Source: Eledone cirrhosa (lineage: Eukaryota). Taken from it: DNA of 64,000 nt. Positions 24,119 through 55,834 of the stretch are shown here, in pieces. The notes beneath the pieces were generated by a model. It worked only from the letters and a program-made list of their open reading frames with translations, did no database searches and had not been told where the DNA came from. The translations under genes were made by a program, and so were the position numbers. The stretch spans positions 37,448,001-37,512,000 of the forward strand of contig OZ024742.1 of the NCBI GenBank assembly GCA_964016885.1. Direction: 5' to 3'. Numbering within the stretch: the stretch's first letter is position 1; every line of letters begins with the position of its first letter.

Positions 24119-25465
24119 TTATTTTATCACACCAGAAGTGGGGCTCTGTACTGATTGAAGAGAAAGGCTAATTTCCTCATCTGTTTTTGTTATCCTCTTT
24201 TCAATAATATTAGAGAAGTCATATGCTAGTTTCTCAAAGTTTTTCTTGAGTAGAAATCGCCTAATGATGAGCCCAAATTTCTCTAAACTCCAAATGTTTC
24301 TCCATTTGCACAGGGTCTTAAAAAGGCGATGCCAAGGGCAATTAGGATGTATATCGATTATAGAGATGTCGTTATTTCTAACATCATGAAAGATATCTCC
24401 ACGTGTAGCGCGTTTTTTGTCAACGGCTACAATTAAGTCAATTATATGCTGGTTAGTAATTATATTTGGGATACCATCTTGAATAATACATTTGGCCTCT
24501 GTCTCAAGTTTTCGGTCCACCAGAAAGAAACAACTAAAGATTTCATCATTAAAAATGTTATTTTTTATCCTATCTTCATACTTTACCAATAGATCATGTT
24601 TAACATTTTTATCCATGAGATAGCCTTTTATGGTTGAATATATTTTGATTGTTTTTAACAAAACGCAATCGAAGTCTTGAGGTGGCTCGTTTGGTAACTT
24701 TGGCATAGAATTTAGATCAGGTTTTTCAAAGTCGTCTTCTTCTTCACTGTCCGGATCAACATACGGGTTGTGCGGCTTGGCCTCAGTTTCGATTTTATCC
24801 ACGTAAAAATCTTTTTCGAAATCTAAGAATTCCTTATCATCTTTTTTAAATTTCTTGTTTTTTTCGATGTTGTCGAAGTATTCTTTAATGTCCTTGACAC
24901 AGAGAATGTCGTACTCTTTCCCTTCCAGTTTAGAGTCATAAATCTCTTTGAACAATTTCACACATTCTTTTTGCAGATCATCGTTTAAAACACTTTCTCT
25001 CCATTTCAGAAATATATCCTCATAATTACTAATACGAAGTTTCTTGTCCTTCTTTGCGGTTTCTTTATCTTTAATTGCATTATATCCGATTGGGAGTGAC
25101 GACAGTTTTAAAACTTCGCGCAGTTTTCGATAAAATCTAAAATCAGTAACCCTTTTATTCAGATGAAGATAATTTATAATAAACTTATAAATTGCATCCT
25201 GGTGTAACTTCTCTTTCTTATAATCAATGTGAAACAATCCGATGAAACTATTCACAGCTATTTCAGAAAACCCGAGCGTAAATCCCAGTCTAAAAGCAAC
25301 ATCTTTATCTTCAATCGTTTTTGTCCAATTTTGTAAATCAGAGAACTTGAAAAGTCCCTTGTACTTTCTTTCCTCCGAGGGTGTTCCATATTTATAAAGA
25401 TCCTCCCAAAACTTTTCTCTGTATTCTTCTGCAGATGTTTCTGTTTGCTTGTTAGTTTCCGACAT
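24119..25465 (-). CDS. intronless 448-aa uncharacterised protein, possible N- and C-terminal death-fold domains
   Basis: Long uninterrupted non-repetitive ORF. LGFTLGFSE.AV..F and FKTLCKWRN...L...FEKLA resemble death-domain helices. - strand AATAAA near 23755. The product call is inference. Confidence 0.7.
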   Translation of the reverse strand: MSETNKQTETSAEEYREKFWEDLYKYGTPSEERKYKGLFKFSDLQNWTKTIEDKDVAFRLGFTLGFSEIAVNSFIGLFHIDYKKEKLHQDAIYKFIINYLHLNKRVTDFRFYRKLREVLKLSSLPIGYNAIKDKETAKKDKKLRISNYEDIFLKWRESVLNDDLQKECVKLFKEIYDSKLEGKEYDILCVKDIKEYFDNIEKNKKFKKDDKEFLDFEKDFYVDKIETEAKPHNPYVDPDSEEEDDFEKPDLNSMPKLPNEPPQDFDCVLLKTIKIYSTIKGYLMDKNVKHDLLVKYEDRIKNNIFNDEIFSCFFLVDRKLETEAKCIIQDGIPNIITNQHIIDLIVAVDKKRATRGDIFHDVRNNDISIIDIHPNCPWHRLFKTLCKWRNIWSLEKFGLIIRRFLLKKNFEKLAYDFSNIIEKRITKTDEEISLSLQSVQSPTSGVIK

Positions 25466-26079
25466 ATTGTAATTAAACTGCTCAACCAGGAAGTTAATGT
25501 TGAAGTTGGTGGTGGTGGTGGTGGTAGTGGTGTTAGACCACGCATACCATGAACTTCATTGGTTAAGCTTCGTTTTTAGATCAGACAACTCCCGATAATT
25601 TCCGTGGGTGAAAATGGTAGTTAAAAAAAAAAAAAAGTTATCACCATCGCATTATTAAGAAGCCGAGGTTGACTTTGCCTTTCATCCTTACGGGGTCGAT
25701 AAAATAAAGTACCAGTAATGCACTGGATGATTGCTGGCCTTGTGCCTAAAGTAGAAACAATTATTAAGAAATTTAGTGTTCGATTGCACAGATACAGCTT
25801 CGAAGATGAGGTTGTTTATTAAAATCTTGAAAAAATTCTCCTTCTCACAGATTAAAATTACTACAAGTTGTCAGGAATCTTAAAAAGAAAGATTGTCAAC
25901 TATATTATCTAAAGTGTCCTCCCTCGCCCTTTTTTTTTTCAAAGTTAATTATTTGAGGGAGATTTGGCTACTATTTCTAACAAGTTTCATCTTTATTATC
26001 ATATTTAATTTTTGTCTACGGGAGATAACTCACGAAGATTTAATTTTTTTTTAAATAATTATTTTCAAATGTTCATTAC

Positions 26080-31800: not shown

Positions 31801-33153
31801 GGTTGAAATAATATCAAAATCTCATAGATTCCATATGTGAGATAATTATGTTAGATGAAAATATAATAGTAGATATAGAGTAATGCTAAAGAGTTAAGAG
31901 GAAGTTTTTTTTATGATTTACAAATGAGACAAATCAATAAAAATTAATGAGAGGAAAAATAAAGTGAGAGAAGACATGCACACGCAATTACACACTACAA
32001 CAGGCAATGGTTGTTTTAGAATGTCTATATTTATCTAAAAACCTTCCATGATATTTTATGTAAGAACCTTTAAGTTATGTTCCAAGCACCTTAATAATAA
32101 TGAGAAAGTTGTGTTACTAAATCCTCCCAAATTCTTGATTATCTGAAAATTATTTAAAAATCATAGACTGTATTTCATCAGGAATATAATAACAAAAAAG
32201 TTAAATCTCATACTGTCTCCTATTTTAGGCTATTATCTGGTGACACAGAGGCAGGAATTTCTCAGCAAAAGTTCAACTACAAATCCATCAGTTTGTGACC
32301 TTAAAGGAACATGAAAGACATTTGTAACACTGTTTATAAAACCGTCATTGAGTTGCTGTCAATCTGCAATTGCAAGGATTTCGTACATTCATAACATTGA
32401 TATTTTTGATGATCTTGATGTTGCAGTGCCTAGTAGTTTAGTAGTTAGGATGTTGGACTTACAATCATAAGGTCATGGGTTCAATTCCTGGACTGGATGG
32501 CGTGTTGTGTTCTTGTCATAATAGGTCTGGGGACCCTGTATCATTAAAACAACTAAGAAACCTATGAAATGCAGCTTCATAGGAGGTCAGCTATACCAGC
32601 ATAAATCTGAGCTGTAACAAGACTGTATATATACACACACATATTTTAGGACTGGGGTCTCCAGCATTAAAACACACAAGAAAACTATGATATACAATCA
32701 CGTAAGAGCCAAACCTGCATAGGTGTGGGCTATAAATTTTATTTTTGATGATTACAGGGGTAGAGATGAAATTGACATAACCTGAATTATCCACACTCTC
32801 CTGTATAATTCTTTTACTAGTTTCACTCATTAGACTGACGCCAATCCTATCGACCCTAGTACATATTTTTCTCAAGTCTGGTACTTAGTTTATCAATCTC
32901 ATTTTTGTTGAACGTTAAGTCATAGGACATAAATACACACACACACATATTTATATATATATATATATATATACGGCAGGTTTGGTCTACCCAAGACTAA
33001 AGTGGCACGCAGTGAAAGTGAACCTGAAACCATGTGGTTGCAAAGTACACTCCTTAACCTCACAGCCATGCCTGCTGTAAAATACGATCTACTGTTAGCT
33101 TTTAGTAAGAATTATTAGTCCTTATTTTGGTATACTTTTAAATAGTGGAAGTG

Positions 33154-34287
33154 ATGGAAGTTGATGATGAAACACAGTCTGAAATTAGTGATTTAACTCC
33201 TCAGACTCGAGTAGATAAAAAGAGAAAATCCTATCCATGTGATATCTGTGGCAAGACATTCTCACAGAGTAGTAATGTAATTCAGCATAAGTTAATTCAT
33301 TCTGGTACAAAACCTTATGCTTGTGGGGTTTGTGGTAAAAAGTTCACTGCGAATAGTTCTCTTTCTTGTCATAAACGGATCCATACTGGAGAAAGGCCGT
33401 ACAACTGCAATATCTGTGATAAAGCATTCACAATCAAAAGCAATTTGACCAGCCATGAGCGTATACATACTGGGGAGAAGCCATTTCATTGTGAAGTATG
33501 TGGCAAAACATTAGCTCGCAGTACAGAGTTAGCTCATCATATTCGGACTCATACTGGGGAAAAACCATACCAGTGCAATGTCTGTGACAAAGCATTCTCT
33601 AAAAAGGATTCTTTAGTACGTCACCAACGTATTCATACAGGAGAGAAACCATACAGCTGTGATATTTGTGGGAGAACCTTTTCTCTGAAAGGTTCCTTAT
33701 CCACACATCTGCGAACACATGAAGATAAACTATCATATGAATGTAGTATATGTGGCAAAATACTATATCGAAAATATGATTTGGTGAGGCATAACTGTGC
33801 TCGCACTCTACAGAAACAATTTGTATGCAATGTTTGTGGTGAAGAGTTTCATCAGAGATGCCATTTATTTAGACACAAGCAAACTCATATTGGAGATAAA
33901 CCATATCTTTGTGACATTTGTGACAAACCATTCTCACAGAAAAATCAATTACATGTCCATAAGCGTACACACACAGGAGAGAAACCTTATAACTGTGATA
34001 TCTGTGGTTATATGTTCTCTCAGAAAGGTCATTTGTCTCGTCACATGCGTGTACACACTGGTGATAAATTATACCTGTGTGACATCTGTGGTAAAAGTTT
34101 TTCTCGGTGTAATAATTTGTCTTCTCATGTGCGTACACACACAGGTGAAAAACCATTTGAATGTGATGTCTGTGGTGAAGCCTTCACTGTAAATAGTCAA
34201 TTATCTATTCACAAAGGTATGCACAGAAAAAGTGAGACATATTTCACAGTGAATATTGTCAGTAAAACATTCAAACCTGGCTGTTAA
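33154..34287 (+). CDS. C2H2 zinc-finger protein, 12 fingers (11 canonical, 1 atypical)
   Basis: Tandem CxxC...HxxxH with HTGEKPY linkers. Splice acceptor ttttaaatAG at 33145, first in-frame ATG at 33154. An upstream exon is possible. Confidence 0.93.
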
Positions 34288-45397: not shown

Positions 45398-48312
45398 TGT
45401 AGTGACGCTACTTGCCTTTGGCGTATTTATAAGCTATTCATACGTGATTTGGCTAAGTCAGGCCAATTATAAGCCACGCACAGATATATATTCCAACTTC
45501 CGCCCAAACAAAGATTTTCCCGCTTCTTTCGTATATACTCTCTATTCTTGCTTGGACTTTAAAGGGAAAAGATACTATTATATAACAGTGAGATCTTCAC
45601 TTTGGCCTGTCAGCCTCCTTCGGCCAGACACAATGCCTTTCTTACTTCTAAACTCTTAATTTGTTTGTTCCTTTGTTTGACATGTCAACTCAACTTAACT
45701 CTCTATAATTTAGATGTAAACAAAAACATATAAAAATGTTATTCGAAGACTTACAACTATATCAACAAACATTCACTTTCTGCTAACATTTACCGTTACA
45801 ATTGTGGGGATGGTGTGGTGGTGTGGAGGAGGTGACCGGAAGCTGGGGACGCTTGACCGGAGGCAGAAGAGGAAGTGACGTGAGATGCGTATCCAGGAGT
45901 GTCTGTGGGTTCTCTTTCGGCTGTGACCCGCGACGGATGGACGTGCGAATGCGAGCTGCAACTTGGCGAATGGATTATACCCACAGGTGGCGAGGTCACG
46001 GATGTCTGCGGGGAAACCCTGCGTGAGTGGAGACGTATGACAGGGGCTTTCACAACCGTTGATTTAAAGTCAGCATATCTACAGCTACACGTGGAGGAGA
46101 AGCTGTGGCAGTATCAGCTGGTCAGGTATAAGGGCTGGGCATATTGCCTGACCAGGCTCGGCTTCGGGCTGAACTCTGCACCGAAGATCATGGCGGCGGT
46201 CCTCAAGACCATTCTGAGAAAGACCGACAAGATGAAGAGGGCTTACAATTCCTACATCGACGACATCCTAGTGGACGAGACTGTAGTGCCGGCGGCAAAG
46301 GTCACGAGCCATTTACAAAAGTACGGATTGACTGCGAAGCTGTCTGAGGCGTTGGAGGCAGGAGACGCGCTGAGACTTAGGCTGCAAAGAGACAAGACGG
46401 GCATGTTAGTATTTCGGAGGGGAAATGAAGTCCCGGAACAGGGCCCAAATATGAATAGACGGGAACTCTTCTCGGCATGTGGAAAATTGGTGGGTCACTA
46501 CCCAATTGCTGGGTGGCTCTGGACGGCATGCAGCTATGTCAAGAGACGAGCAGACGGGGTGACTTGGAGTGACAAAGTGGAAGAGAGGACAGTGGCCATG
46601 ATGCAGGAGATCATGGGGAGGGTGAAGGCCGACGACCCGGTGTGAGGACGCTGGTATGTCCCCGAATCACAGAGCGGGACCGTATGGTGTGATGCCAGCA
46701 GCATAGCGCTGGGTGTCACGCTGGAGATAGGAGGTGTCGAGGTCAAGGATGCAGCCTGGCTCAGGAAGAAGGATGATTTCAACCACATCAATGTGGCCAA
46801 GCTAGACACGGAGATGGGTGAACGTCGCCTTGAGGTGTGGACTGCGCACGATCGAGATTCGCACCGACTCGGCCACTGTACTCGGATGGGTGAGATCAGT
46901 GCTTACCAGTGAGAAGAGAGTGCGAACGAGAGGGGCAGTGGAAATGCTGATAAAGTGCCGCCTGGGAACTCTAGGAGAGCTGGCCACTGAGTTCGACCTG
47001 AAGTTGAGTGTGGTCTTCGTACCCTCAGAGAAAAATAGAGCAGACGTTCTAACCAGGATGAAGAAAGCCTGGATGGAAGCGCCGGAGGATGTAGAAGAGA
47101 GGATAGCTGCTGTGTGTCGGCTGAGCGAGTCGGAACTTAAAGGGTTGCATGACATGCACCACATGGTAGTGGATAGGACCCTGTTCCTAGCCAGGAGAAT
47201 CGACTCCGATGTTAGCAAACACAGTATCCAGAGAGTGGTCAGAGGCTGCGTCCGATATCAGTCTATCGATCTGCCCCAGGTGTGCACAAGGCGGTAAGTT
47301 TCCTGGTGGATCGCGACTGGAGGTGGACATAACACACTACCGACGGAACATACCTCTCGATGGTTGACTGTGGACCGGGACGGATGGCGATATGGAGGGA
47401 AATGAAGACAGGAATTGTGGAGGAAATCACACGGATATTGAGAGATATTCTTGGAGCGGGGCCCTGTGGATGAACTGCTGATGGACAACAGCGGAGCGTT
47501 TCGCTCGGAGACACTGAGGGAGATTCTTGATGGGTGGAAGGTGGACTGCTTCTTCAGAGCAGCATACAGGCCGAGCGGAAATGGAATCGTGGAGCGACAC
47601 CCCGCACAATCAAAGCAATGGCAGAGCGGGGGCACATCTCACCAATGGAGGCAGTGTTTTGGTACATGTCCCCTCAGGTGGGACAGTCTGAGGAATCGGT
47701 GCCACACAGAGCAATAGACAGATACGAGTGCCGGCACCCGTGCACTGTCCACAATGGCCAGTGGAGAGAGAGAACACAATCATACAGGTGGGCGAAGAAG
47801 TCTGGGTTAAGCCCCCAGACGCACGTTGCACATCTCAATGGGGAAAGGGAACGGTAATGGCCGTAAATTCCCAGAATAACGGGTCCGTGGACGGAGTGCC
47901 ACATCATACCCTGGATGTCCGTAGAATCGTTGTGTCGACAGACTCCGAGGAAGAGAAAATCCAAAACGCCGCCCCAACATTACGGATATCGCAACGAGAT
48001 CGCCGAACACCTGGCTGGGCGGCAGATTATCACATGCAGCAGTGTGAGGGGGAGATTGATCCTTGAGATCAGGGGGGCATGTGGGGATGGTGCGGAGGAG
48101 GTGACCGGAAGCTGGGGACGCTTGACCGGAGGCGGAAGAGGAAGTGATGCATACCCAGGAGCATCTATGGGTTCTCTTTCGTGTGAATGCGAGCTGCAAC
48201 TTGGCGAATGGATTATACCCGCGTGGATGAGGCATGGCTCGCTGAGTGAGCTAGCAGAATTGCGGTAAGTGCAGTAGCTTTCTCATTACAACAATAACAT
48301 TTTGCTGCTACA
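45398..48312 (+). mobile_element. solo LTR interrupted by a nested Gypsy element
   Basis: TGTAGTGAC start and GCTACA end; shares CTTTGGCCTGTC.GCCT...CACAATGCC with the 50581 LTR. Confidence 0.6.
45803..48290 (+). mobile_element. Ty3/Gypsy LTR retrotransposon, gag/protease deleted; RT-RNaseH-integrase pseudogene
   Basis: LTRs 45803-~45982 (truncated) and 48080-48290; PPT AGGGGGG; 5-bp TSD ACAAT; DLKSAYLQ, LGFGL.SAP, YIDD, WCDAS, TDSA, MDN..AF, NGIVERH. Confidence 0.93.
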
Positions 48313-48719
48313 CAAAACAATACATTTTCTTGCTAGTAAAACAAACTGCTATACCTTCACTTAGAGATCTTAGTCTTACCATAAGAAACAAAAAAACTTG
48401 TTCAATACAACTTGAAAATTTGTCAGCCACTGGCTTTTGTATTCTTTTTCTGGTTTCAATCATTAGACTACAGCCATGCTGGAGCACAGCAGTAAAGCAA
48501 TTTAGTCCTGTGTGAGCGAATCACAGTCCACCGACCTGATCTCTGACAAAGCGACGGCCTGCCCTACCCATGCTAGTGTGGAAGATGGACATTAGATGAT
48601 GATGATGATGATGACAACCAAAGTCATAAAAATCAAACGGAACTCAAATGTCAGCTTTCACACAACAAAGACTTTAGATCACAAGACAGTGGCATTCAAC
48701 AATCACAAGATGTAGTAAT

Positions 48720-49450
48720 GTGGAACCGAATGTAGGTCTGGCTCCAGGAAGGAGCTTAGCAATGGCAACAGGGGACATGATACCAGCGACAGGAGACATC
48801 AATCCAACTGTTAGCAAAAAATTCTTACGGACATTCATTCATTACATTAATGCTTTTGACATTCCTAAAGACATTGCAAAATACAAAATGTCACCAACTG
48901 ACGAAGAATACTTTGAACTAAAAATAAATCATAGAATGTCTAATATACCGTACACAGATTTAAAAGCTAGCATGACAGTAGCAAAACTAGAATCATACTT
49001 ACTACCATGTAACACTTTCAGAGAAAACAGCGTTAGTTATAAAATATCCAATATCATATCAATAACTGACAAACTAAGCCCACTACAAAATACTACAACA
49101 AACATGACATTCCATGGATAGCAACGCCAAGACCATGGATTGCAACTTACATAGACATGGAATACGTTTTATTTCCTAATTCAACATATAATGTAGCAAC
49201 AAACGACAATTTCAGACATAACATACCTAATGCACATGAAGAAGGAACATTAAAAAACTTAATGACATCATGTAAATATAGAAAAGACTTGTGGTTATGG
49301 CAGGGTTTTAAAATTCCTTTGACATCAGAACAGACAATAGATGCACAAGAACTAATAAGTTACATGGATACTGGTAATTGGAGACCATTATACGCAGGAG
49401 AAACATCAAGCTATACTTGGGTTAACAAAAATCCAAGTTGGTTTAATATG
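48720..49450 (+). pseudogene. endogenous parvovirus-like capsid (VP) fragment
   Basis: INHRMSNIPYTDLKASMT...KISNIISITDKL...TF~RPWIATYID...PLYAGETSSYTW follows the parvoviral capsid motif order as recalled for Hamaparvovirinae; frameshift at a short duplication near 49112-49147. Confidence 0.65.
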
Positions 49451-49479
49451 ATGTATTACACTGTGTTTCATACTTTTAG

Positions 49480-52400
49480 CAGCATTACTAATTTAAGGAA
49501 AAGAAGAAGTATTGAAGCAGAGAAGTATTGTTATGAGGATTATAGACATCTTAAAGGTGTTAAGCTAGCAAGCACTTCCTTTTCGATGTGACAGAAATAA
49601 ATTGGCCTACACTCTGGATAATGAGGTTCTGAATCGTGGCATTTTTTTTTTAGCTACAGTACAGTTGATGGCAAAATATGATACCATTATGGCAGCTCAG
49701 GTTTCTGCAGTGCAAAACAAGTCTGGACAAAGAATTCAAACAATTAGAACAAGGAGAGGCTCAAAGTAAAGACCGTGGTGAATTTGTTACATACCTGAGC
49801 AAAACAACTATTAATTCAAATTATGAAGAATATGATACAAGAAGGAATTGTCATTAAGTTTCTCAAGTAATATATTATTCTATTGCGGTTGATTCAACAC
49901 AAGATAATTCATCTGTCAATCAGTTTAGCATTGTTATACGGTATATGCTTAAAGGTGCTATCTGTGAGTGACTACTTTCAATTGTGCCAAGTAATGATGG
50001 TATAGGAGAGGGGCATTTTGATCTATTGACTGTTATTCTTAAAATTGACCCCAAAGAATGTTTACCTGATAGCACAGATGGGCAGTATAATGGTTTATAA
50101 AGTAAAATTGCTGAAGTGGCAGATCAACATGCTCATATATGGTGCTATGCCCATGTCTTGAATTTGGTGATAACTGAAACAAAATGTTGTGTACCTGCAG
50201 TTTCGTTTTTCAATTTGCTCCAGAATTTAGCAACTTTTGTGAAAGCACCATACAAGAGAAAGGCTGTATGGATAGAAGTTGTTGGAAAAAATCTAGGACA
50301 AGGAAAAAATGAAATTATTGATGCTAAATGGTGAGACCAGATGATCAGGAAAATCCAATATAGCAACAACTATATTTGGATGTTTTGATCATGCCACTGC
50401 CAGTACTTTTGACATGCTTATCAATGATACAAGATTCAGACAAGTTTGATGCAAATGTTTTACTTCAAAGTCTTCTAAAGTTTGAAACCATATTGATAGC
50501 ATTTACTTAATTGTAAATATTTGAAACTACAACCCTGTTATCAAGTTACCTATAGACAAGTGGTTTAAATATGTTTACTGTGTAGTGACCTACGTTCCTT
50601 GGGCTCATAGATACATTCTCCATGCGTTATTTGGCTCAGCTCTGCCAATCGCCGCCAGCGAAGGAGAATGTATCTCGACACGCCCTGCAGGAAAAATTCC
50701 CGCGTCAGCTCAGAAATCTCTCTCTCTTGCAGCTTGACCATGCTAAGGTAAAGACCATTTATTCTTTTGCTCCGTAAGCACAAACAATATGTAACGGTGA
50801 GATTTGAACTTTGGCCTGTCGGCCTTCCTTGGGCCTGGCACAATGCCACATTCCTTTTGTAACCGTTTTATGTTTAACTTCAACTATACTATTAAACAAA
50901 CATTACTTTGTGTTACAACAAATAAACATACATCTCATCTCTTATTTCTCTCGTTGTCGATATTACTATCATATCCTTCTGCTAAAATGGTTACTTGTGG
51001 CGCTATTACTATTATCTACTTCTATACTTCACCTGCTAAAAATGGTGACCCCAAATCTTACTGCTAAAATTGGTGACCCCTAACGGAGGAATATTTTACG
51101 TACCAAATATTCCTTTTAAAATAAAATAAAAATTGGCAGTATATATATAAAAAAAAAAAAAATTTCACCATGAGGAAATTAGTATCAAAATGGCTATCAC
51201 CTCTACCAACAACAGCAGCCGCCTACGACATCTTTGAAAGAAAAAAATTAGCTGTATTTTCAAAATTATAGCACGGAAACATTTTTCTTTCGATAAGGCT
51301 TCCTGCAATACCAACAAACAAGCCAACACCAAACTTACGTGGTGACTTACGGCTCTTCAACGATCGACTTCGCTTTGATAGCAACAACAACAACAACAAC
51401 AATTCTACTAGCTTCCCAAAGAAAAGAAAAGCGAACTTTTTGTTAAAAGAACAATTCTTTCTTCTTTTTTTACAGGCAATGTTTGGACATTTATTTCTTT
51501 TAAACTGTATTATATGAAAATTCATTTTTTTTCCTATCATTGTATATATGACTGCACGCACACATTTTCTTTGCTGTATTACATGCCTGCATATGCACAC
51601 TCATTTCTTTGTCACACACCAACATGTTGTTGTCTATGGTATATGATCTTCAAGCGTTGTAATATTATGCGAGATCCCTTTTCACCTGGTGAAGGTACCA
51701 AAACATGCTGTCAACACTTGCAGCTTAATTCATCTGCACCGCAACACGAGAATGCTAATTGCAGCTGGATTCAAACAGTTTCGCATCTCATTGTCCTATA
51801 GCATAACAACCTCCATCTTGTTACTTTACACGACTCACTGGGAAAACAACAAATGGAACTGGACCAGTCAGCATTTCCACCATTTCACCAACCGATTCGG
51901 CAGATTTATGGAATTACCGCTTCAACTACTACCCACCTACAGATTGAACTTGCTTTTTTTCTTTTCAAAGCAACTAGCAATATTTTTTCCTGGCTGCCTA
52001 GCACTTCCGGCAATTCATCTGGGAGGCCGACAATTTCTTGCCTACCCATCTTCTTCCCAGCTCTGCTACAACATTTACCATAACAGCTCTGGTATAACAC
52101 TTACCATAACAACTATACAGCTCTGGTAAAGCATGAACAACACTGACAACATCATTGACAACACCTACTGGTAAACTACCATAACAGCTTCATCCACAGC
52201 TCTGATACAACACTTATCATAACAGCCAACATTTAATGCAAGAACAGCAACTTTGCTCATGTCAGACTTTATCCGTTTTCTGTTAGACCCCTGGTGGTCA
52301 CGTATAAATAGCAAAACAGCTAGTCATTTGACACAGCGGCTCAACACGGCCCTTAGCGCCTCATTTTTCTTCTTGCATGCATTCTTTTGTTCAATTTTTT

Positions 52401-52889: not shown

Positions 52890-54110
52890 AAAAAATTAAG
52901 CTGATAACAATCAACACCACTGCCAACACATCAGTCAGTGGAGAGCCCGTCAGAGAGGTCGAGTCTTTTGTCTAACTGGGAAGTGTGGTTGATGTCACAG
53001 CCAGGATTGGCAAGGCAAGAGCAGCTTTCATCATGCTAAAGAACATTAGGGCATCAAAAGAAATCTGCCCAAGAACCAAACTTAACATCTTCAACTTCAA
53101 CGTGAAGGCGGTACTGCTGTACGGATGTGAAACTTGGAGGACAACAAAAAAGATGCAGCAGAAGACATTCTTCAACATCTGTCTGAAGTGCATCTACAAC
53201 ATCAAATGGCCGGAGAAGATCAGAAACGAAGATCTGTGGGAACGAGCGGCAAAGCAGATTCTGCGAAAGAAGTGGAGCTGAATTGAACATATCCTCAAGA
53301 AACCAGCATCCAGCACCACACGTCAAGCCCGGACCTGGAATGCACAGGGTAAGAGGAAGAGAGGCCAGCCCCGTGGCAGCTGTGTAGCAAAATCTGTCCA
53401 CGCCTTGAACCCTGGCTGACACAGAAAGGTCAAATTCCGGGTCACCTCCTTTTCGGCGTAAACAAGTTCATGCGTGGGCGATCCCTCGAGGCGGGAAACA
53501 GAAAAAGACAGTTATAAATAGCCTGCACCAAACCAAAGAACACAGCGAGATCGGAGCAGTACGTGAGAGAATAGCTATGTAAAACATTCACCTCCGGGGT
53601 CTACAGACTGCTACAGACCTTTACTCTCTCTCTCCTGGTCTCAGACTACACCAGCATCATGAAGCAACAACAAAAACATCTTCAACTGTTATAACTCTTA
53701 ATAACCTATTCTTTGTTCATTTATGAAGTGAAGTGAAGTAAACCTTTTATATCAAAAGTAAACCAGCACATGAACTGCGGTAAGATAAACACCTATCCTT
53801 CTTTCGCTCCGGAAACATCATTCCAATATGTAACTACAAAACATTACCGCGGCCTGGCTTCTCAATTCAGCCACTGGACCGTGTCTTCTCTACAGATCTT
53901 AATTTGTTTGTTCATTTATTTTGGCATGCCAACCAACCAATACAGCTCTTCTCACCTTAAACATTGTTAATAAATTCTGTTACAATGAACTACAAATTGT
54001 TGTCAACATTATTTTATCTTACTTCTAATGATAACTAGTAACAACCTTCGCTTCAGCTGGAGGTGTGACACTGAGGCTGAATTAAGAAAACTGGAAGCCA
54101 ACTGCAGCTA
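52890..54110 (+). mobile_element. RTE LINE 3' fragment interrupted by a solo LTR
   Basis: ARIGKARAAF, VKAVLLYGCETW, WPEKIRNEDLW, GKRKRGQP; resumes after 54059. Confidence 0.85.
53383..54055 (+). mobile_element. complete solo LTR with 4-bp TSD
   Basis: TGTAGC...GCTTCA flanked by GCTG (53379-53382, 54056-54059); TATAAATA and AATAAA inside. Confidence 0.85.
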
Positions 54111-54149
54111 ACCCAGAAGTAAAAGGGTTAAAACATCCATGCAAGCTTC

Positions 54150-54820
54150 TTATAAGGAAAAGTTTTCAACAATCAAACAACTGTAGAAAGTGCGCAAAAC
54201 TAATCCACAATATTTATAGATTAGGAGATCTAATTTTTCAGAAAACCAGGAATGATGGCTACAAATTTATCAAGATATTAGAGCTCTTATGTAACAAAAG
54301 ACTAGTTGAAATGGCAAGGGAGGCTTGATCAGCGATCCCTCCCTTCACTAGATTTGGCGGCCACAGCATTGAAGAAGCCTTATTTTGGAGCCAAGAGAAC
54401 TCAGTCTCACCAGAAGTAGAGAACTTTTTAGTATTAATAGAAGCATTAACCCATCACAAGGATGTTGTTTATGTGTCCAGTTGGGGACATCCATTCATAG
54501 ATTATTTTGAAACATTAAAGAAACAACACGATTTAGTCACAATGGCGTTGCCAATAGGGCAAGGAAAATTTCTCGGTGACACGAACTTAGTCAGTTGAAG
54601 ATGACACAACCTAGCTCATGGCATTTGAAGCAAAGGTTTACATGGATGAAGTGGAGGATAACCTACAATATGGTGGCCAAAGTCCTATGGCTATAAAATT
54701 CATTTCTTTGGTTGGATTACAAGCATTAAAGATTATAGATATTAATACCCCGAGGAAACCTTATATGCCCAGAGACAAAAAGATGGTCCAGATCTTCTTG
54801 TCTCTCTAACAATCAAATAT
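54150..54820 (+). pseudogene. endogenous rhabdovirus L (RdRp) fragment
   Basis: NIYRLGD...[29 protein letters not shown] at 54482-54505; GKFLG; RGNLICPETKRWSRSSCLSNNQI at 54751-54819. Collinear with recalled vesiculovirus/lyssavirus L motifs. Confidence 0.88.
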
Positions 54821-54852
54821 TTTCTCTCACAAATCTACTATTTCACTGTGTT

Positions 54853-55172
54853 GAAATAGAAATTTGTAATTTACTGTTCCTTGTTCACATAATTTAAGGA
54901 AATAAACAAGACACCACCACAGTGTTCTAAAAATATCAACAATGTAGCAGCATATGTCGTAATCAAAGCCATAACTATCAAAAGAACTGTCAGTCATGTA
55001 CTAATGCCACCAACAAATAAAACTAAATATGAAGACAACCAAAGTCATAAAAATCAAAAGGAACTCGACTGTCAGCTTTCGGACAAAGAAGACTTTAAAT
55101 CACAACAAAATGGCATTCAGCAATCATCTATCCACTGCATCGAAATAGAAATTTGTAATTTACTGTTCCTTG
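54853..55172 (+). repeat. 31-bp direct repeats (54853-54883, 55142-55172) flanking a second copy of the sequence upstream of the VP EVE
   Basis: GAAATAGAAATTTGTAATTTACTGTTCCTTG twice; 55034-55126 matches 48613-48705 at 81/93 nt. Confidence 0.85.
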
Positions 55173-55834
55173 CCTCCAAAACTTAAGAGTTCCGTGTTAC
55201 AAATGAGTAGATTGTGGTGGTTTTTATTTCAATCAATATAGTTTATTCTGAACTGAGTTATTCAATAATTTGTGAACAACCTGATAGTTGTATTTTTTAA
55301 ACATAAATTATCTTGCACCATTATGAAAATTTTCATCAAAATGTCTGCTATAAATTAAATAGGTACACCATATCCCTTTCTGTCACAAGAGGGGAGCAGG
55401 AAAGTCATTTGATATGTGTGTACTTGGTTTAGAATAGGTATGCCATATCTCTGCATGTCATAAGAGGTGACTAAAATATATGCCTAAAAAAAATTTACCC
55501 CTGTTGTGTAGCCTCATAAGGCTAACCCCTGCTTTAGCAGGAAAAATAACCTCGCTGTTCTTGTAATTTAACTTATACCAGTGATACAATGACTGACTTT
55601 GTGTCAGTAATATTCTAGAACATTCTTTGAGAATGGCTACTTTATCTTATCACAAACGTATTGTAACAGGAAAGGAATCATATTACTGTGATATCAGTAG
55701 TAAAACATACTTTCTTCTGAAGGTGACTTAACCCCTCTGTGATCATACTCCTAATGAAATACTCTACCTGTGTTTTTGAAATAATAAAAAAATGTGGAAG
55801 GATTCAGTAAAATAAATAACTATGTATATCTGAT

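Follow-up and report, generated by a model that had tools for sequence, protein, structure and literature searches.

In mice, the reverse transcriptase (RT) of an LTR element is said to copy an RNA virus by switching template, leaving a recombinant LCMV–IAP cDNA, and in yeast short cDNAs of the Ty1 LTR end are reportedly inserted at DNA breaks without integrase. These events are somatic or experimental, whereas the locus described here is old and inherited. In the mosquito Aedes aegypti, hybrids between RNA viruses and Ty3 or Ty1 elements have been described in circular DNA, with copy choice as the proposed explanation (PMC6797480). LTR-mediated retroposition, known from flies to mammals, may draw on several donors and leaves a few shared bases at its joins; its products should contain both LTRs (PMC5131818, whose main text does not contain the string 'mollus').

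Here we describe an insert in the genome of the cephalopod Eledone cirrhosa, in a window of 64,000 nucleotides, which is the whole stretch of DNA that was analysed and to which positions refer unless a contig is named. As in the Aedes aegypti hybrids, a non-retroviral virus is joined to Ty3/Gypsy sequence; unlike them, it is fixed in a non-insect germline, combines two unrelated viruses in a single insert and has joins that fall on landmarks of the element (compared with PMC6797480). As in LTR-mediated retroposition, captured RNA sits between parts of a single LTR element that are not contiguous; there, however, the donors are host mRNAs and both LTRs are expected, whereas the present insert has viral donors and lacks a 5' LTR (compared with PMC5131818). 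The locus is a real fossil, probably of a known kind of mechanism, made unusual by its two viruses, its landmark joins, the absence of full LTRs and its cephalopod host, and an RNA virus and a virus with a DNA genome meet in one insert. In the literature searched, which lay mostly outside subscription journals, no rhabdovirus or endogenous virus of a cephalopod was found.

Organisation of the insert

The insert is a non-coding chimera of six pieces that ends at 55172. It is a germline insertion that combines two pieces of rhabdovirus L with a VP1 piece from a parvovirus and three Ty3/Gypsy pieces, and it was probably written by the Gypsy RT during template switching. From left to right it comprises a fragment of a rhabdovirus L gene, here called V1 (54185–54544, VSV residues 265–382), the gag start of a host Ty3/Gypsy family (54542–54757) with its primer-binding site (54543–54558), a second L fragment in open frame, V2 (54751–54843, VSV residues 783–813), the last ~80 bases of a Gypsy LTR up to the LTR terminus (54842–54921), an in-frame piece of a parvovirus-like VP1 gene, V3 (54919–55126), and a second, shorter LTR-end piece that lacks the terminus (55130–55172). 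All lie on the forward strand and all six (6/6) are in message sense, for which the chance is 1 in 32 given independent orientations. V1 and V2 are separated by 205 bases of Ty3/Gypsy sequence, namely the primer-binding site and the gag start.

The left flank is a 3' fragment of a host LINE on the forward strand (52900–54104), whose motifs suggest the RTE type. It is interrupted by other repeats at 53384–54053, as seen from contigs of public runs in which 53368–53383 is joined to 54054–54061, and it is cut at ~54104, behind which there are loose ends; three exact patterns from its normal continuation are absent from the 64-kb window and the adjacent 30 kb. Between the LINE and V1 lies a single-copy spacer (54105–54184) that may be diverged L; it has no other genomic match past 54108, and comparison with L, Gypsy and parvovirus loci yielded nothing significant. 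To the right of the insert, no L similarity was found in 55173–55400. An earlier sequence-only reading had proposed a rhabdovirus L fossil at 54150–54820; it was correct as to the L pieces and too narrow in extent, having missed the VP1 piece and stopped short of the right-hand end.

The rhabdovirus L fragments

The viral origin of both L pieces is secure by protein similarity. V1 matches the Pfam domain PF00946 above its cut-off (E 1.4e-11) and VSV L residues 265–382 (E 4.8e-14), which bears out the proposal of an endogenous rhabdovirus L, and among PDB chains it matches VSV (5e-14) and 6ueb, presumably rabies L (2e-5), with the next L chains at 0.09–0.13. V2 matches 6ueb residues 798–827 (E 2.4e-6) and VSV L 783–813 (E 0.031), and is 57% identical over 30 aa to perhabdoviruses. 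A six-frame scan of the window that used only an L profile, built from 31 full-length L proteins and 2115 positions long, gave exactly two stretches: V1 at profile positions 256–380 (E 7.7e-25) and V2 at 778–810 (E 3.8e-6). No continuous frame with the catalytic GDN region was found, only these two L stretches with a stop, in agreement with the predicted loss of the catalytic core. V1 has an in-frame stop codon at 54326–54328 and is shortened by a small deletion ahead of the WGHP motif. It is single copy, and V1 and the core of V2 were untouched by the 53 non-self matches of a DNA search of the genome against itself, in which 40 of 242 candidates were scored.

Similarity to Mononegavirales L, the check proposed with the sequence-only reading, is significant, and the named relatives point one way. 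V1 had 50 matches in a protein library, of which 30 were looked up and 22 could be named, all 22 of them rhabdoviruses (by name, tag or established affiliation); another two of the 50 matches are to repetitive proteins with no relation to L. Neither V1 nor the open frame at 49070 gave a match in word-indexed searches of proteins of up to 2000 residues.

The genus of V1 cannot be placed from these fragments. V1 is 37–42% identical to vesiculo-, perhabdo- and tupavirus L. Placements were made on a backbone of 65 rows, 64 references plus the L locus on contig C3 described below. Lyssaviruses, novirhabdoviruses and outgroups from other families are absent from this backbone, and a further six short library proteins were included in the alignment and omitted from the trees. 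The best position for V1 (weight 0.88) is the long branch leading to an almendra-related virus, where long-branch attraction is possible, and three of 127 placements lie within 4 log-likelihood units for V1, compared with 46 of 127 for V2. Killamcar virus 1, a rhabdovirus of mussels, has been classified (PMC12282299), and at this member of the Alpharhabdovirinae and at VSV V1 fits 17–18 log-likelihood units worse than at its best placement. With V1 added as a gappy row, FastTree gave a long-branch, unstable position. The placements of V1 and V2 differ, and a common viral origin of the two pieces is an assumption.

The host Ty3/Gypsy family

Four peptides had been quoted by the sequence-only reading as L, and all four are present: HNIY...SAIPPF from 54206, WGHP...VTM at 54482–54544, GKFLG at 54563–54577 and RGN...NNQI at 54751–54819. 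The first three share one frame (54206–54577) and the last is in another. GKFLG, however, does not belong to L. It lies in a multi-copy host repeat (54538–54757), which accounts for 20 of the 54 matches when the 3.0-Gb genome was searched with its own sequence (40 of 242 candidates scored), and is present in the gag start of family copies, which match 54542–54757 in 20 places at 71–95% identity. In the three forward frames of this middle piece there was no significant similarity to any of 162 L proteins (best E 0.083), and matches of the GKFLG type to those proteins had E values of 3.8–19. The idea of an L gene compressed by internal deletion fails with it: ~400 L residues are indeed missing between V1 and V2, but the gap holds retrotransposon sequence.

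On its domain content the family is a Ty3/Gypsy LTR retrotransposon. One copy (L030) has the order RT (weak, E 3e-4), RNase H (2e-21) and integrase zinc domain (2e-8), a second (L027) has a protease (weak, E 1e-3) before RNase H, and a third (L035) has paired LTRs of ~370 bases each that are 85% identical. The primer-binding site is complementary at 14 of 16 positions to the end of tRNA-Ser(AGA) plus CCA. The tRNA-end pattern complementary to it has 202 matches in the genome (control, 0), and ARAGORN called Ser(AGA) at one of three loci scanned, the others being one Pro and one undetermined; the exact 16-mer of the primer site occurs in one distinct family locus. Most of the first 100 listed tRNA-Ser-end matches lie in a tandem array with a 317-base period at C4:316.09–316.19 Mb (L057–L062).

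The first LTR piece, 54842–54921, aligns to positions 297–379 of a 382-base LTR used as a yardstick, and from its motifs would correspond to R–U5. In nine of 12 family loci the LTR end lies directly 5' of the primer site, whereas in the window it lies 3' of V2. The second LTR piece, 55130–55172, is 92.5% identical over 40 nt to 54844–54883 and corresponds by local alignment to LTR positions 306–338. The gag piece has a mean identity of 83.6% to ten copies, and these share 84.1% with one another over 45 pairs, which puts the age of the insert at about that of the family's spread. With copies differing by ~16%, the edges of the pieces could also owe their shape to later deletions.

Two other ideas about this family were abandoned. 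Short LTR-end copies seemed to offer evidence for a transcription start, with strict alignment putting four of nine copies that lack the primer site at LTR positions 279–283; under laxer scoring most such copies reach near full length or the tail of another repeat, and one or two stay short. The gag piece was also examined for an A-to-G editing scar, and against the ten copies the counts (C>T 67, G>A 57, A>G 50, T>C 42) give no one-strand excess. Fragments of a second LTR retrotransposon family (RVT_1, DUF7047) lie at 45884–48310.

The parvovirus VP1 piece and its relatives

V3 is identified by its match to an endogenous VP protein (L056; 40% identity over 73 aa, E 8e-12); alone it has no Pfam match. 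Related loci carry recognisable parvovirus domains, with PF08398, the phospholipase A2 domain, in one VP (L050, E 2e-13); this VP family neighbours a Parvo_NS1 helicase (L055, E 1e-18), and parvovirus-like sequence has 30 genomic matches, older relatives included. The only other match of V3 in the genome, and its closest relative there, is a broken parvovirus-like VP gene in the same window (48608–49590, forward strand), with which it shares 87% identity over 98 nt (48608–48705). This gene is 68% identical in nucleotides to intact copies, and an Atlas lead (0.90) points to Cossaviricota. It lies 5.4 kb from the chimera; two captures of one virus lineage stand side by side.

Elsewhere in the genome there are young parvovirus-like copies at C5:102.83 Mb, C10:49.49 Mb, C14:8.50 Mb and on C998 (L048–L053, L073–L076). 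In these, a VP frame of 524 aa, open and with a phospholipase A2 domain, precedes an NS1-like frame on the same strand; they are 99–100% identical over ~3.1 kb on the four contigs; several are fold-back pairs. They possibly represent a very recent endogenisation.

The joins and their physical reality

Two of the joins fall on the boundary between LTR and primer site: V1 stops at the opening bases of the primer site, and the first LTR piece runs up to the LTR terminus. On the LTR, the starting points of the two LTR pieces lie only a few bases apart. At three joins 3–7 bases appear to fit both partners, the viral side being read from protein similarity.

Sequence across the junctions, a further check suggested with the sequence-only reading, was found. 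Contigs assembled from three public runs (X1–X3) cover 54075–54882 and 54858–55169 and bridge five internal joins; the left edge is not counted among these, with only 30 letters on one side of it. The first two runs show no differences and the third differs at one spot. Three joins are bridged by X4, which comes from another sample of the study that gave X1–X3, and in a run of a different study (X6) two reads match 54104–54256 at an identity of at least 97%. Two RAD-seq runs (X5, X7) give little or no cover, such libraries sampling a small part of the genome, and none of the public runs listed is an RNA run with this sequence. The best-covering runs X1–X3 are one sample, which may be the assembly's source, and this leaves some room for an assembly artefact or contamination by a live virus; the bridging by X4, the two reads of X6 and the stop and deletion carried by the L piece make either extremely improbable.

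Proposed mechanism and alternatives

In LTR retrotransposons the minus strand starts at a tRNA, copies the LTR end and must then jump, after which it runs only as far as the primer site. Read from right to left, the pieces LTR end, V2, gag, primer site and V1 would form such a minus-strand path with two detours onto an L message. A tRNA-Ser would prime at the primer site and the RT would copy ~80 bases of LTR end; in place of the normal transfer it would jump to the L message (V2), then return to the Gypsy RNA ~215 bases into gag, run off at the primer site, where RNase H would have removed the template already copied, and jump to the L message further upstream (V1). The L pieces are met in 3'-to-5' order along this path, V1 abuts the primer site where the run-off would be expected, and V2, between gag and the LTR end, has the position of a captured RNA between discontinuous parts of one element. 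V3 and the second LTR piece would likely be a second such cDNA, made on a parvovirus template. Both LTRs, as an insertion of the integrase type would show, were not found in the insert, which has only LTR positions 297–379 and 306–338 and no 5' LTR; because there is no left LTR end, insertion is likely to have been by break repair or a one-ended event. Template switching is the most probable explanation, but several points weigh against it: the second LTR piece lacks the terminus, the donors are known only by protein similarity, R–U5 is read from motifs, V1 and V2 may stem from more than one virus, and the published model of LTR-mediated retroposition would lead one to expect both LTRs. Checks of other viral loci (15 stretches plus four) revealed no copy of this Gypsy family beside them, and for this reason the chimera has to be regarded as a single case.

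Three other histories might yield such an insert. The pieces may have been reverse-transcribed separately, or V3 derived from viral single-stranded DNA, and then patched together by end joining at a DNA break. The left side, with no clean integrase signature and with a cut LINE whose continuation was not found in the window and the adjacent 30 kb, is what such repair might leave, the capture of LTR-end cDNA at breaks is reportedly known in yeast, and the joining of the right LTR terminus to V3 is hard to obtain in one tRNA-primed run; ligation, on the other hand, explains neither the common orientation of all six pieces nor the exact abutment of V1 on the primer site, and we regard this history as unlikely. 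We think similarly little of a longer L insertion that came first and was later broken up by one or two Gypsy insertions and by deletions at the DNA level. It would require that the 5' LTR be lost with the cut falling precisely at the primer site and that a parvovirus piece land precisely on the LTR terminus, and V2 lies between gag and the LTR end, within the element's own order, even though the region is dense in decayed repeats and the long L insertion at C3:130.16 Mb demonstrates that long insertions do occur.

The history implied by the sequence-only reading, in which one L gene was shortened by internal deletions and inserted by the neighbouring LINE, is very improbable. The two L pieces are in gene order, a LINE fragment adjoins them, and at a different locus, on contig C27, L pieces are followed by a LINE 3' end; here, however, the gap is filled with Gypsy sequence, GKFLG is gag, and the LINE, which the viral piece cuts, is situated on its 5' side, the wrong side for a LINE-primed template switch. 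That reading was right in stating that a retroelement RT was needed, and it pointed to adjacent RTE/LTR sequence; the element implicated is the interleaved Gypsy family, the neighbouring LINE having merely been cut at ~54104.

If template switching by the Gypsy RT is the correct explanation, the insert would identify both the capturing element and the step of capture, unlike most endogenous viral elements, because its joins keep the landmarks of minus-strand synthesis. A role of piRNAs has been shown in Aedes aegypti (PMC6797480), and a retrotransposon-fed antiviral small-RNA memory in a mollusc is conceivable, if doubtful; should small RNAs map to this locus, molluscs would join insects as animals with heritable immunity derived from viruses.

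Other viral loci and open frames

At least three further mononegavirus L loci are present in the genome. The locus at C3:130160108–130164894 (L019) is a long rhabdovirus L that covers profile positions 34–1217 and 1440–1718, followed by two repeated pieces; ~400 bases downstream, on the other strand, is a fragment whose motifs suggest a Gypsy-like integrase. The locus at C27:16994052–16997823 (L023) is a mosaic of L pieces in both orientations that are 74–81% identical in nucleotides to the C3 locus and are placed with it (weight 1.0), and the LINE 3' end with a repeat tail that follows them possibly reflects LINE-primed capture. These two loci are one lineage, distinct from that of V1, and since V1 is only 29–34% identical to the C3 locus, rhabdoviruses are likely to have reached the cephalopod germline more than once. 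The third locus, C23:16221471–16222900 (L021, L022), has a Pfam match of E 1.5e-10 and is likely to represent another family because it is weak against the rhabdovirus profile (E 0.005–0.01).

Two further open frames were noted in the window. One, of 478 aa on the minus strand at 24122–25555, has no Pfam match and falls into unnamed Atlas clusters only (0.92, low recognition). The other, at 33142–34287, encodes tandem zinc fingers, presumably of the C2H2 type.
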